64,000 bases of DNA from Eledone cirrhosa (lineage: Eukaryota): contig OZ024765.1 of assembly GCA_964016885.1 (NCBI GenBank), positions 19,716,001 to 19,780,000 on the forward strand. The letters run 5' to 3'. The notes below the pieces were generated by a model. That model made no database searches. It saw nothing but the letters and a program-made list of their open reading frames with translations, and was not told the DNA's origin. Positions within the stretch are counted from its first letter, which is position 1. Every line of letters starts with the position of its first letter. Shown piece after piece: positions 1,510 through 59,190 of this stretch. The position numbers and the translations under genes are program-made.

Positions 1510-1572
1510 ATTTCATTATACATATTTCAAGGACACCAAGTTAAATTATGGTGTGCTTTCATCAGATAAAAT
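1510..1572 (-). ncRNA. Type I hammerhead ribozyme motif in Penelope-like cassette
   Basis: Minus strand reads ATTTTAT-CTGATGA-AAGCACACCA..TGGTGTCCTT-GAA-ATATGTAT-A-ATGAAAT. Core and three stems are present; near-identical copy at 13253-13315. Confidence 0.8.
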
Positions 1573-1644
1573 ATAATATAGAGCAGTTTTATAAATAAAT
1601 ATATATATAGGATAGACATTGTTTTGTAAATAAACCAATTATAT

Positions 1645-1823
1645 AATTGTTTCTACTATTGGCACAAGGCCAGCAATTACCCAGTACATTACTGGTACTT
1701 TATTTTATCGACCCCGTAAGGATGAAAGGCAAAGTTAACCTCGGCGGGATTTGAACTCAGAATGTAAAGGGACATAACTATGCTAGAAAGCATGGCGTCC
1801 AACCCTCTACCGATACTGCCAAT
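1645..1823 (-). mobile_element. tRNA-derived SINE family B (GCCTTTCATCCTTACGGGGTCGATAAAAT central domain)
   Basis: B-box-like GAGTTCAAATCC. Copies at 12449-12550, 16129-16318, 20990-21140, 49408-49503, 51068-51252, 53200-53390, 61752-61938 and 62412-62580. Confidence 0.85.
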
Positions 1824-1937
1824 GAATAAGAAACTAATGAGTTAATACCGCGGAATGTTACATTGATGGAATGTGGTAAATATAAGAAGGAATTGGGAGG
1901 TATTCATAGAACATCAGAGACGAGCTTACATATTGAA

Positions 1938-2029
1938 GCATATCTGAGGATCTTTTAATTCCAGAGTCAGGTTCGATCAATAATAGATCATTCCTCGAGC
2001 TGATCGACAGTGAAACATATGAAATATGT
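1938..2029 (+). ncRNA. Degenerate hammerhead motif with long stem II
   Basis: GCATAT-CTGAGGA-(about 60 nt)-GAAACATATGAA-ATATGT followed by ATTAAA. The cleavage triplet appears mutated. Confidence 0.5.
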
Positions 2030-2104
2030 TATTAAATATGTTATGATGCAACACTGATACTTTGTACCTTTATTCTTATACTATATATATATATATTATC
2101 ATTA

Positions 2105-2461
2105 TCATTCATCATCATTTTACGTCCGCTTTTCCCTGCTTGCAAGGGTGGGACGGGTCTTATTCAGCACAGCATCTCTCCACTCGTCACGGTCCTTCGT
2201 CATCTCCACCGTGAGCTTCAATGATCTGAGATCTGTTCTCACCACCTCCGCCCATGTTTTTCGTGGTCTACCTCTACCACGTCTTCCTTCAACTGGCATT
2301 TCCTGGCACTTCTTCACCCATCGGTCATCCTCCATGCGCATCACATGTCCATACCACCTCAGTCTCCTCTCCCGTACACTACATTCTATCCCTCTCAGAC
2401 ACAGTTTCTCTCTCAACACATTTATGCTGGATCGTTCACACACATTTACACTGCACATCCA
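2105..2461 (-). mobile_element. RTE-clade LINE family B, 3' fragment
   Basis: Encodes [41 protein letters not shown] with a (GAT)n tail; matches 60481-61141. Confidence 0.92.
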
Positions 2462-2479
2462 ATATATATATATATTATA

Positions 2480-2840
2480 TGGCATCATGCAGTAATATAG
2501 ATGACCCAACTTCCCACAGGGAAGAAGCTGAAGCTGAAGCATATAGAAAATATGCCCCCACCCCCTCCCACTGCAAAGTGGTCGTGGAGGTGTCACAGCA
2601 AAAAAGCACCCAGCCCACACTGTAAAGTGAATGTGAAGGCGTCACGGAAAAAAAGCACCCAGCACTCACTGTAAAATGAGGTTGGTGTTAGGAAGGGCAT
2701 CCAGCTGTAGAAATCAAGCCAAAATCAGTTCTGTATGAGCAAGACATGGTCACCTGACCTGGCATTGCTCACAACAGGACAACCCGTCTGACCCATGCTA
2801 GCATGGAAGAATAGCCTAAAACGGTAATGATGATGATGAT
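2480..2840 (+). mobile_element. RTE-clade LINE family C, 3' UTR fragment
   Basis: Homologous to 18700-19265, which keeps the coding end GVGRPKKTWDE. Ends in (GAT)n. Confidence 0.8.
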
Positions 2841-54872: not shown

Positions 54873-54912
54873 TTCTGTTGTCGCTCCAGGTAATATAAGG
54901 TACACAGCAACG
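54873..54912 (-). CDS. Candidate small exon (40 nt)
   Basis: CACCAG| acceptor and GAA|GTAAGT consensus donor; frame VAVYLILPGATTE. Confidence 0.4.
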
Positions 54913-56514
54913 CTGGTGATATATATATATGTGTATATATGAGTCAGTATATGTATGTGTGTGCGTGATATATATGGATATATGTGTGTGTGTGAGTCAG
55001 TATATGTATGTGTGTGTGATATATATATATATATGGTTGTATGAGTGTATATGAGTCAGTATATGTATGTGTGTGTGTGATATATATGGATATATGGATG
55101 TATGTGTGTATATGAGTCAGTATATATATGTGTGTGTGTGATATATATATATATATGGATGTATGAGTGTATATAAGTCAGTATATATATGTGTGTATGT
55201 GATATATATGGATGTATGTGTGTATATGAGTCAGTATATATATATATTTATTTATATATATATATATATGTATAGTATATATATGTATATATATGTATAT
55301 ATATATATGTATAGTATATATATATATATATGTATATATATATATGTATAGTATATATATATATGCAGGGGTGACTCAAAAATAAAAGATATATTAAGTT
55401 ATATATATGTAGTATGTATGTATATTATAGTGATGAATAATTTCTCTTAATGTGTGTATATATATATACATAAAAGCCTGTGTGTATGTGTTAGTAAATA
55501 TGTATATGTGTGTGTATATGTGTGATGTCTACATGTGCATGTATGTATGTGTATATGTATGTATGTGTATATGTATCACTCCAGGTAATCAACTGTATAT
55601 GGGAACTGAAGAGAGAGAGATGGTGTATAGATGTACAAGCTCACTCAGTGTCCTTTTATATATACATAGCTGCGTGTATAGGTGTGTGTGTATATGTGTG
55701 TGTGTGTGTATGTGTTTGTGTGGGTGTCTGTGTGTGTATGTGTTTGCGTGGGTGTCTGTTTGTGTGGGTGTCTGTGTACACACACACATATATATATATA
55801 TATATATATATATATATATATATATATATATATAAGAATGTATATATATATATATATATATCTATATATATGTGTGTGTGTTTGTTTGTATATAGATATA
55901 TATATTTATATGTATATATATATATGTATATATATATATATATATATATATATATGTATATAGATGTACGTATATATATGTATATATATATATATGTATA
56001 TATATATATATACATATATATATATATATATATATATATATAAGTTTTAATATATATATATATTACTTACTGTGGTTACCTCCGATTCAACCCGGAATAA
56101 CGTATATATATATATATATATATATATATATATATATATATATATATATATATATATATATATATATATATGAATATATATAAATATATATATAAATATA
56201 TATATAAATATATATATAAATATATATATAAATGAAAAATATATATATATATATATATATGTATATGTAATTATATAATTATATAAAAATATATGTATAT
56301 ATATGTATATATATGTATTTATATGTATATGTATATATATATATATATATATATATGTATATGTATATATATATATATATATATATATAAATATATATAT
56401 ATATATGTATATGTATATATATATATATATATATATAACGAAGGAGGTGTGGTAAGGAACCAGATGGACCATAACGCACCAGAGTACTCAATACTTAGAG
56501 TAGTAGAGTGGGAA

Positions 56515-56630
56515 ATAGGAAAATGTTTAACCCCGACGGCAGAGGTCAAGCCGTTTTGACAGCTATTTCTGGACTGAAATAGCCGTCAAAACGGCTTGAG
56601 CTCTGCCGTTGGGGTCTAACATTTTCCTAT
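56515..56630. repeat. Fold-back palindrome made from a hammerhead 3' half
   Basis: Arms contain AAA-ACGGC ttgagctct GCCGT-T. Related to 35225-35283 (GAA-ACGGC..GCCGT-C) and 12904-12986. Confidence 0.75.
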
Positions 56631-57503
56631 ATATATATATATATATATCTTGCAAGTAGGGAAAAGCGGACGTAAAATGATGATGATGATGATGATATAT
56701 ATATACATATATATATATATATATATATATATATATATATATTTATATATGTATATATATATATATATGTATATATATATATATATATATTTATATATGT
56801 ATATATATATATGTATATATATATATATATATGTTTATTTGTATATAGATGTATGTGTGTATGTTGCCAAAAAAATGCCTCTTTGGTTTAAGGTTTATAT
56901 GTAATTTAACCTGTGTATATATATATATATGTGTGTATATATGTAGTGTGTATAAATGTGTGACTCAATGTGTTTGGGCGGTTATTAGTATGATGTATGT
57001 ATGTATGTGTGTGTGTTTATGTGTATGTATATATGTATATATGTATGTATGTATGTATATTTGTATGTATGCATGTATGTATATATGTATGCATGTATGT
57101 ATATATGTATGCATGTATGTATATACGTATGTATGTATGTATGTATGTATGTATGTATGTATGTATATATATATATATATGTATGTATATATGTATGTAT
57201 GTGTGTATGTATGTATATATGTATATATATATGTGCGTATGTATGTATATGTGTGTGTATATATTGGGTCGTCAAGTAAAGAATTTGTAGAAATTTGTTT
57301 TTTTTCCACAAAATTCTACAAATTTCATACTTGACGACCCAATATATATATATATGTGTATATATATATATATATATATATATATATAAATGTGTGTGTA
57401 TGCATGTGTATGTGTGTGTGTATGCGTGTGTGTGTGTTTAAATCTCTGTGATTTTCTTTGGAAAGAGAAGAAAAACATAAGAAAAATAAAGTTTGAACGG
57501 TTC

Positions 57504-57528
57504 TGCCGCTAGATGTCGCCATAGAAAC
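57504..57528. promoter_or_regulatory. Overlapping RFX X-box and CTCF-like motif
   Basis: GTCGCCATAGAAAC (57515-57528) fits GTHNYY-AT-RRNAAC. GCCGCTAGATGTCGCC resembles the CTCF consensus. Both lie in a unique, CpG-richer island. Confidence 0.5.
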
Positions 57529-58289
57529 GATATATCGTCTGCACCCCTCCCCACCCATCCTCTGCCCCCACCCCACCCATCGTCTGCCCCCACATGTTCG
57601 TCTGTCACCCATTTCACCCCTGTGATAAACATATAGTGGGTAGACACCAATTTTGCTGTGGAAACTACCACTAATATATATATATATATATATATATATA
57701 TATATATATATATATATATGTGTGTGTGTGTGTGTGTGTTTCTATATATATATAATTATGTGTATATATGTTTATGTATATATATATATATACATTCACA
57801 CACACATATATATTTATGTGTATGTGTATATATATATATATATCATGGAAAACATTACATTTAAATGTATATATATATACACACACACACATATATACAT
57901 GTGGTTATATATATATATATACATATATATATATATCATGGAAAACATTACATTTAAATGTAAAAGATTTAAAGGAAGGGCAAACCCTCAAACACTCCCT
58001 ATGAAATTGAGAAATGACTTTAAAATTACTCACACACATATATACATATATACAAATATTCCTACATACATACACATATTCTTACATGCATACACACATA
58101 CATACATACATATATTCCTACATACATACACATATTCTTACATACATACATACACACAAACACACATACATACATTTATATATACCTATCTACATATCTA
58201 CATATATACATACATGATGGCTGCCCCCTCGTTATCGAGTATGGCCATTGCACGAAAAAAAAAAAAAAATATATATGCACATACATACA

Positions 58290-58684
58290 TATCATCATCA
58301 TTATCACCGTTTTACGTCCGTTCTTCCACGCTAGCATGGGTTAGACGGGTTGTCCTGTTGTGGGTTCGGTCGGCTGACCTTGTCTTGCTCATACGGGAAC
58401 TGATTCTGGCTTGATTTCTACAGCTGGATACCCTTCCTAACACGAACTTCATTTACAGTGTGGGCTGGGTGCTTTTTTTTTGCCATGGCACCTGCACGAC
58501 CACTTTGCAGTGGAATGATAGGGACCCCCAGTCCTATCATCTCATTTCTACAGCTGAGTAAATTGGAGCAATGTGAAATAAAGTGTCTTGCTCAAGGAAA
58601 CAACACATCACCCGGTCTGAGAATTGAACTCACGACCTTTCGATTGCAAGCCCAATGCTCTAACCACTAAGCCATGTGCCTCCA
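58290..58684 (-). mobile_element. SINE family A with RTE-C type tail
   Basis: Same structure as 29978-30365. Confidence 0.88.
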
Positions 58685-58840
58685 TATATATATATATATA
58701 TATATATATATATATATGTGTGTGTGTGTGTGTGTGTGTGTGCGTGTGTGTGTGCAAGCGTGGAACATGCAAGCGTGGAACACGGACGTTAAACGTTGAT
58801 GATGATGATGATGATGATATATATATATATATATATATAT

Positions 58841-59190
58841 AGGTTTTAATATAGATGAGATTCTACAGGACTAGAACTGTTTCATTCATTAGAAATCATC
58901 AGGAATCTGGGTATCAAAAAATAAATATGGTATTTATAGGTCTCTACAAGTGGTAGGAGAGGGTGGGGAGTGGGATGGGTGCAGGTCATTGGTTGATAGA
59001 AAAGGGAATTCATTAAAAGCTAATTCTACAAAGCTATAGTTTATTTTTTGATACCCAGATTCCTGATGATTTCTAATGAATGAAACAGTTCTAGTCCTGT
59101 AGAATCTCATCTATATTAAAACCTTTATACTCTGCTATGTATTGAGTACCTTACTTACTGTGGTTACCTCCGATTCAACCTGGAATAACG
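58841..59190. mobile_element. Penelope-like cassette with inverted HHR-bearing arms
   Basis: Inverted repeat 58841-58924 / 59040-59123. HHR AGATTC-CTGATGA-TTTC taat GAAT-GAA-ACAG ttctagtc CTGT-A-GAATCT at 59057-59107 (+) and 58858-58908 (-). Confidence 0.85.

Follow-up and report, generated by a model that had tools for sequence, protein, structure and literature searches.

Hammerhead ribozymes between TA tracts in the genome of the octopus Eledone cirrhosa and their links to Penelope-like elements

The window, the whole stretch of DNA analysed here, comprises 64,000 nucleotides (nt) of Eledone cirrhosa (OZ024765.1:19716001-19780000, assembly GCA_964016885.1); it has a GC content of 37% and is 87% repeat. 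On both strands, between (TA)n tracts, lie short cassettes that carry hammerhead ribozymes (HHRs). An original prediction, made from the letters alone, described them as a dense system of non-coding units of Penelope-like origin, with at least 10 sequence families, probably within the introns of a host gene. The diversity has held up, with 15 sequence types sorted by eye among the 22 sites then listed. The cassettes are very probably, for the most part, 5′-truncated and often fold-back pseudo-long terminal repeat (pLTR) ends of coding Penelope-like elements (PLEs), chiefly of the Hydra clade, which are likely to enter TA tracts by target-primed reverse transcription and whose HHRs are predicted, from their sequence, to self-cleave.

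Type I HHRs were sought with a descriptor that asks for the core, GAAA and NUH, a stem I of at least 4 bp or 6 of 8 pairs, a stem II of at least 3 and a stem III of at least 2. It finds 14 complete folds in the window, as against a mean of 0.06-0.11 (maximum 2) in two sets of 200 shuffles each, and none when seven decoy cores are passed through the same descriptor. All 14 have a CUGANGA/GAAA/NUH core within stems I-III and end in stem I. The heptamer CTGANGA alone occurs 45 times versus 23.8 ± 4.7 in 100 block-wise dinucleotide shuffles. Twelve of the 22 listed sites are canonical (1510, 8097, 10883, 13253, 23889, 31929, 33324, 35845, 36021, 49265, 58858 and 59057). Four more are family-wide variants with a complete fold: at 46330 and 46476 stem II is 114 nt long and its first pair is C.A, while 21614 and 32396 have the core CAGAAGA. 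The other six are damaged. A single stem pair is broken at 21453, 51448 and 40069, and three sites are badly broken or truncated: 1938 (U16.1 is A, stem II is weak), 24130 (5′ strand of stem I replaced) and 36294 (stem I of 1 bp). Three HHRs had been overlooked, two complete (15659 and 59429) and one with a single mismatch (49159). Rfam detects no hammerhead in the window at its gathering threshold, only three tRNA-like heads of short interspersed elements (SINEs); such cassettes do escape both Rfam and the annotation of open reading frames (ORFs).

Family A is represented by two complete A1 copies on the reverse strand, at 1509..1573 (with its core at 1565 and a predicted cut after 1517, in an element of about 1453-1609 flanked by TA runs) and 13252..13316 (predicted cut after 13260), and by the 3′ half of a forward copy truncated within stem II (11809..11906). 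A complete A/B-related HHR lies at 33323..33389 (reverse). Family B provides an inverted pair of complete copies, the tail-bearing arm at 35844..35914 (reverse) and the other arm at 36020..36090 (forward), and a reverse copy at 23891..23955 that is 5′-truncated at -5 and joined to an inverted tail. The complete B2 copy at 49265..49330 (reverse) has an inverted partner with a mutated core at 49507-49615. Two forward copies of family C each have one broken pair in stem I, the first pair at 21453..21507 (element about 21261-21555) and the second pair at 51448..51502, and a complete C2 copy lies at 8096..8151 (reverse, predicted cut after 8101). Family D forms an inverted pair of complete HHRs with arms at 58858..58908 (reverse, U.U at the base of stem II) and 59057..59107 (forward, tail-bearing), which together make up an element at 58836-59195 between TA runs. 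It also forms a fold-back palindrome at 7430..7555 whose junction falls inside the core and leaves half-motifs. Family I is seen as a palindrome with one arm at 46331..46475 (reverse, 114-nt stem II) and a tail-bearing arm at 46476..46622 (forward) in an element of about 46276-46820.

The remaining types are more varied. A complete HHR of family G (59425..59467, forward), one of the three additions, forms the 3′ end of a Neptune/Nematis-like PLE; the others are a complete type K HHR with an internal duplication (15653..15732, forward) and a G2 type with one stem I mismatch (49121..49164, reverse). Family E is a complete minimal HHR (10883..10928, forward, predicted cut after 10924). Two further minimal forward HHRs are imperfect, type F1 with its stem I broken (36293..36322) and family F2 with its first stem II pair broken (40069..40104). 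Family H has two reverse folds with the U4A core CAGAAGA (21612..21668 and 32397..32447) and a fold-back palindrome with its junction in the core (15345..15483). The family J HHR (31929..32052, forward) has a stem II of about 100 nt and belongs to a 751-nt ORF-less unit, here about 31640-32205. Type M, also with a long stem II (24122..24235, reverse), is truncated at the core and has lost stem I; an intact relative exists in locus L157. The type L motif (1937..2031, forward), with its altered U16.1, is decayed or doubtful. Finally, a forward motif at 13044..13175 (H17 at 13112, GAAA at 13129, CUGAUGA at 13156) has its blocks in the scrambled order S-G-C.

The landscape is not confined to this locus. 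The assembly comprises 3.0 Gb in 1796 contigs; the axolotl genome is about 10 times larger. Sixty 10-kb stretches, taken every 50 Mb on the large chromosomes and one each on 17 smaller ones (600 kb in all), contain 66 complete folds, as against 0-4 in shuffles and 0-5 with decoy cores. This amounts to one complete HHR per 9 kb genome-wide and one per 4.6 kb in the window, about twice the genome average and in both cases sparser than the one per 3 kb originally proposed. The genome total is estimated at about 330,000 complete HHRs (bootstrap 215,000-454,000) by a descriptor that misses variants such as H and I and admits a few false positives. Published counts, obtained with differing descriptors, are more than 6000 in a coral, about 5000 in a mussel and 126,247 in the axolotl (PMC7229834). 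On octopus hammerheads the literature yielded just two relevant sources, Craig et al. 2021 and an Rfam count for the giant squid, and subscription papers and other supplements may hold cephalopod counts; the main text of the O. vulgaris repeat paper mentions neither "hammerhead" nor "Hydra".

The proposed targeting of (TA)n is borne out in both samples. A (TA)4 or longer run lies within 200 nt 3′ of the predicted cleavage site in 12 of the 14 window motifs and in 55 of 64 genome-sample motifs; the respective figures for random positions are 34% and 26%. The words AATAAA or ATTAAA that the original prediction placed after many HHRs often overlap stem I in its 3′ strand, at positions -1 to +7 for the majority of A, B, C and E copies, so that structure accounts for the word without a poly(A) signal; such a signal is unnecessary, since the copies shown end in TA or in a tail, not in poly(A). 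Stem pairing is kept among families, as seen in stem III: this stem and its loop are perfectly palindromic in 37 of 80 motifs, with 11 distinct sequences, where the descriptor required only 2 pairs. The pairs of stems I and II are imposed by the descriptor and do not count as independent evidence. Palindromic stem III has been read as a sign of dimeric hammerheads in repeats (PMC3088659), and with a stem so short and self-complementary most of the HHRs would likely need dimerisation or protein help to cut.

What ties the cassettes to PLEs is their occurrence behind coding frames. Every family searched is multi-copy, with first-look candidates (not copy numbers) of 2509 for C, 871 for D, 1474 for I, 1760 for J, 3733 for F2 and 2773 for H. 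The copies share the architecture published for PLE insertions (PMC8557442): they are 5′-truncated, often have an inverted copy in front, and end 3′ either directly in TA or after a tail. A PLE reverse transcriptase (RT) fragment was found in a flank, and a genome search with it returned 65,527 candidates. RT and GIY-YIG partners, which the original prediction had asked for, were found for A, B, C, D, I and G. For family A, locus L022 contains an uninterrupted 745-codon frame with the motifs RIRWR, DKT, LYRDD, CxCx5C, GIY-YIG, CxxC and CxH, and its 3′ untranslated region (UTR) ends in an A-type HHR, followed by TA, that is 83% identical over 152 nt to window 13190-13352. Of 25 loci fetched with a Hydra protein, 14 have a B-type HHR on the same strand at a distance of about 1 kb downstream, and these HHRs are 87-92% identical to the window copy. 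Family D follows an ORF or endonuclease (EN) and a TG/TA tract (about 2.3 kb in L021) in L020 and L021. In L194 a Hydra ORF is followed by a 3.3-kb UTR and an I HHR, and in L196 an I copy has that ORF next to it in inverted orientation. For family C, 4 of 20 loci contain a same-strand Hydra EN at 0.7-1 kb upstream, with one further weak match, and for family G a GIY-YIG EN with a CX4CxxC linker lies directly upstream in 4 of 15. In the linked families the distance from the stop codon to the HHR is about 0.2-3.3 kb. Two apparent links were discarded: A and D looked like two HHRs of one element in L022, where an A element is actually inserted in the TG/TA tract of a D copy, and the Hydra EN of L010, a candidate partner for C, belongs to a family B 3′ UTR.

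These six families at the 3′ end of RT/GIY-YIG ORFs imply that the cassettes are mostly truncated copies of coding elements. By sequence they class as 5′-truncated pLTR ends, Hydra-clade for A, B, C, D and I and Neptune/Nematis-like for G. The Hydra features are a single ORF with RT and, at its C-terminus, a GIY-YIG (the L022 frame, and profile matches upstream of B, C, D and I), an RWK-like motif with DKT instead of DKG (RIRWR and DKT in L022, DKT in L028), a CxCx5C linker with CxxC and CxH around the E and N of the EN in A-, B-, D- and I-linked frames, and insertion into (TA)n, with 28 of 33 family I arm ends abutting TA. In family G the linker before GIY-YIG is of the CX2-5CxxC kind, as CX4CxxC in L246 and L247, which does not separate the Neptune and Nematis clades. 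The original remark that coding sequence is absent holds for the window, where a Hydra protein profile matches nothing at E<1e-3, but not for the families. The prediction of a non-autonomous system is wrong or unproven: J alone is shown to lack an ORF, and E, F, H, K, L and M are as yet without a firm ORF partner. In the flanks, at L192:6248-7156 and L207:251-1144, lie frames that by eye look Neptune/Nematis- or Poseidon-like, which indicates that several PLE clades coexist in the genome. The named homologues found for one retroelement protein of this genome come from Argonauta hians, in keeping with an octopod host.

Several observations weigh against this reading. The A1 subfamily of the window is linked to an ORF only via a sister subfamily. 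No ORF was seen for F2 in 15 loci, for the scrambled family in 25 loci, or for E beside two long copies in L019, and H has a single tentative link in 15 loci (L258); the search for partners covered families A, B, C, D, E, F2, G, H, I and J and the scrambled one. The assignment to the Hydra clade is one of motifs and homologues rather than of an RT tree, and Pfam-A has no match on the Hydra frames. The RWK-like motif and DKT were not found at the N-terminal place in family I frames, C and D were available without an N-terminus, and L215, the only C-linked copy examined, is altered at the H and at the final C of the linker. When the HHRs are folded as monomers, D, A1, E, I and G do form stem II, but in most cases the minimum-energy structure is something other than the full three-way junction.

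The 5′ ends of the copies fall at preferred places. For family I, loci were re-sampled with a query that starts 37 nt inside the ribozyme, which removes the bias of upstream length from the ranking. The best matches are 100% identical over 149 nt on several chromosomes, which makes the family very young. By a hand count with palindromic pairs taken once, 16 of 26 insertions begin within -14 to +8 of the first core base; of the rest, 7 are long (at least 343 nt), 1 lies between -21 and -343 and 2 elsewhere. The junction sequences differ among copies, which points to independent events. Of the 7 family D palindromes that lie outside the loci fetched with the D query, 5 have a spacer of at most 16 nt. 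The arms of B cluster at -67 to -74 (10 of 20) and those of C at -112 to -124 (4 of 6), both near a CATATG word, and those of G at -65 to -71 (5 of 9). Mapping of A1 and A3 ends was discarded because subfamily divergence breaks the alignments, and from a first mapping, confounded by palindrome-to-palindrome matches, only spacer lengths were kept. The hotspots are family-specific, and in two families, I and D, they lie at the 5′ edge of the HHR itself. Their cause may be the 5′ end of the RNA, an RT that lets go once past a helix, or microhomology, be it to the TA target or to the cDNA itself. Four D subfamilies have, by eye, CCAAT at about -90 and TATAAATA at -35/-36, distances like those of a promoter. 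A TATA box is not supported as the general cause: the TATA-like word of A belongs to distal stem I, I has none at the right distance, and the word in D could also pair with the tail or be distal stem I. No literature on a pLTR promoter or TATA box was found.

In the likeliest course of events, the RT/GIY-YIG protein of a Hydra or Neptune/Nematis-like element would nick a TA tract. Two start sites for the cDNA, both 3′ of the HHR, would account for ends that have a tail and ends that lack one, as for the anole PLE in vitro; the uncleaved HHR would be copied through, and synthesis would usually stop early, at a family-specific spot. The cDNA end would often snap back and be recopied, producing the two-armed insertions. 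ORF-less units like J would likely borrow the same PLE enzymes, and the long TG/TA-rich 3′ UTRs of D and I would likely spread new target sites.

Elements of this kind are already known, also in Octopus; what is added here is scale, 5′-end hotspots and variant folds. Craig et al. 2021 (PMC8557442) described Hydra-clade PLEs that prefer (TA)n and carry an HHR, among them Hydra-1_Obim from Octopus bimaculoides. Like the present elements, they have the RWx and DKT motifs, the CxCx5C linker and the C-terminal GIY-YIG with CxxC/CxH, carry a type I HHR close to the 3′ end, insert into (TA)n and come with tails and inverted 5′ copies. In that paper the Hydra families are few and mostly short (<3 kb), with one from an octopus and tails of 30-40 bp, whereas at least five Hydra families are found here, two of them with multi-kb TG/TA-rich 3′ UTRs and tails of about 70-140 nt, and HHR ends number in the hundreds of thousands. 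The Poseidon PLE of Anolis carolinensis, studied in vitro by Frangieh et al. 2024 (PMC11167929), likewise has two 3′ ends, AT-rich targets and insertion with an uncleaved HHR; HHR cleavage is not needed for its insertion and requires the PLE protein. Its ORF starts within the HHR, unlike the linked families here, where the HHR follows the stop codon, and fixed 5′-truncation sites are not described in the part of that report accessible to us.

A different origin would make most cassettes independent non-autonomous retrozymes, ORF-less units whose transcripts would be cut out by tandem hammerheads, closed into circles and put back into the genome by PLE enzymes. Retrozymes occur in molluscs (PMC7229834) and have been argued to descend from PLE pLTRs (10.64898/2026.07.22.740005). 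Minimal pLTR hammerheads and non-LTR retrozymes share with the cassettes the type I fold, a weak palindromic stem III, ORF-less units like J and, in axolotl HHR_Amex2, a U.U pair at the base of stem II (Cervera and de la Pena 2020, PMC7229834; Li et al. 2026 preprint, 10.64898/2026.07.22.740005). Family J fits this origin: its 751-nt unit has no frame longer than 59 codons, and its 3′ end is joined to its own start at the same junction in L085, L093, L097 and L099 (at least 4 of 20 loci). The loci examined for F2 and the scrambled family, with no ORF seen, would suit it as well. However, six of the families continue into ORFs, 41 of the 66 sampled HHRs are of types with an ORF link (A, B, C, D or G, typed by pattern), and the J loci shown hold partial tandems with one J HHR each rather than two or more units each with its own. 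Retrozymes form tandem arrays, whereas the copies here are mostly single or inverted. As an account of most cassettes, this origin is unlikely.

It is far less probable still that the motifs are host ribozymes in introns, selected for RNA processing. At such a density many HHRs would fall into introns by chance, but the copies are young and multi-copy, as the identical family I sequences show, and several window copies carry stem-breaking changes. The supposed host-gene introns find no counterpart either: 17 window frames were scanned and gave only transposase and LINE (long interspersed element) RT domains and no host exon, the flanks not being searched for a gene. Chance matches in AT-rich, microsatellite-rich DNA can be dismissed for the set by the shuffles and decoys, although chance alone would give about half of the CTGANGA heptamers, and site 1938 may be a match of this kind.

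Several folds depart from the canonical form. The family H core is CAGAAGA in 12 of 14 copies that keep their native upstream bases, with CTGAAGA at fold-back junctions only, and CAGAAGA is also the core in most of 15 further H loci. A natural, weaker hammerhead variant with U4C is known from the literature, and a search for U4A found no hammerhead paper. In six H loci (L252, L255, L259-L262) the copies share a small SINE-like repeat at one site upstream of the HHR, which suggests either that one subfamily multiplied with the repeat already in place or that the site is a favoured target. The stem II arms of I and J, of about 100 nt or more, are conserved among copies. Family F2 is older, its best other copies being 84-92% identical.

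The motif at 13044-13175 is a candidate scrambled-order hammerhead with the S-G-C block order, a stem I of 8 bp and a stem III of 5 bp. A descriptor for this order finds one in the window versus 0.025 in shuffles and two in the 600-kb sample versus 0.15. Its family has 1346 candidates, the best 98-99% identical and ending in TA; relatives with the C block only lie at window 11919, 37429 and 51299, and all loci taken together contain six sequence types, whose stems differ. Further candidates were noted in L020, L131, L141, L257 and L278. The C and G blocks do not pair directly as stem II. Stem II is apparently split instead, each side pairing with an upstream extra strand: on the G side, before GAAA and outside the descriptor, all 6 of 6 types have a 5-bp partner located 15-19 nt upstream of stem III (the chance of one anywhere in 63 nt is 0.1-0.4 per type), and on the C side, after CUGANGA, the partner is weak and individually not significant. 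Type-SGC hammerheads (Eckert et al. 2023, PMC10085705) have the same order and the same 3-nt linker between stem I and GAAA and differ from the window motif in stem II, the two sides of which do not pair with each other in the latter; they come from sequence collections, none from the genome of a known organism as far as the accessible text goes, while the present one is in an animal repeat. In the Craig supplement (PMC8557442), the record that precedes Naiad_Ovul, its name not shown, ends by eye in S-G-C order.

A bolder picture, tentative and rather improbable as a whole, would make this the densest hammerhead landscape yet counted. The I and D cassettes would be run-off ("strong-stop") products of internal initiation, with an RNA 5′ end set by a pLTR promoter, the two-armed cassettes would record across the genome how PLE reverse transcription ends, and an active scrambled hammerhead with split stem II, thought to be lacking in Naiad-type elements, would be mixed in.

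Hundreds of thousands of young copies from many families make two questions testable, the function of HHRs in PLEs and the mechanism behind the inverted 5′ copies. They offer natural variants (the U4A core, the 100-nt stem II and the scrambled order) together with precise junction statistics. A further consequence is that PLEs account for a large share of the short repeats found between TA tracts in octopus DNA, which Rfam misses, and that microsatellites may be seeded by PLE 3′ UTRs. Multi-kb TG/TA tracts were noted in the Hydra 3′ UTRs of D and I (L021:1665-4300 and L194:3756-7039), are also hit by other PLEs (L022), and resemble the low-complexity sequence at window 54925-57400; D and I elements may in this way spread their own TA targets.

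Other repeats of the window include fragments of RTE-like LINEs, SINEs derived from tRNA, a mariner transposase, satellites and tracts of TA/CA. The matches listed from an Rfam E-value run (150 of 299) are all either microRNA-like ones on TA/CA repeats, tRNA-like SINE heads or a single RUF3. A 275-aa mariner-type transposase frame (Pfam Transposase_1) lies at 27846-28673 (forward). The frames at 13490-14977 (forward), 2120-2641, 33835-34332 and 60398-61108 we take to be RTE-like LINEs, the longest with RVT_1 and an inserted PHD-like finger. Directly 3′ of the family G HHR, at 59490-60408 (forward), lies what is presumably a fragment of an R4/Dong-type non-LTR element, with a zinc knuckle and an RT C-terminus and without a Pfam match. 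Satellite arrays occupy 41073-45019, 5029-6681, 19678-20386 and 62577-64000, with 85-bp units x 46, 49-bp units x 34, and 97-bp and about 68-bp arrays assembled from pieces of interspersed repeats. A 105-bp tandem repeat at 20511-20928 has CTGATGA in three units, with no GAAA, stem III or stem I partner that passes the descriptor.

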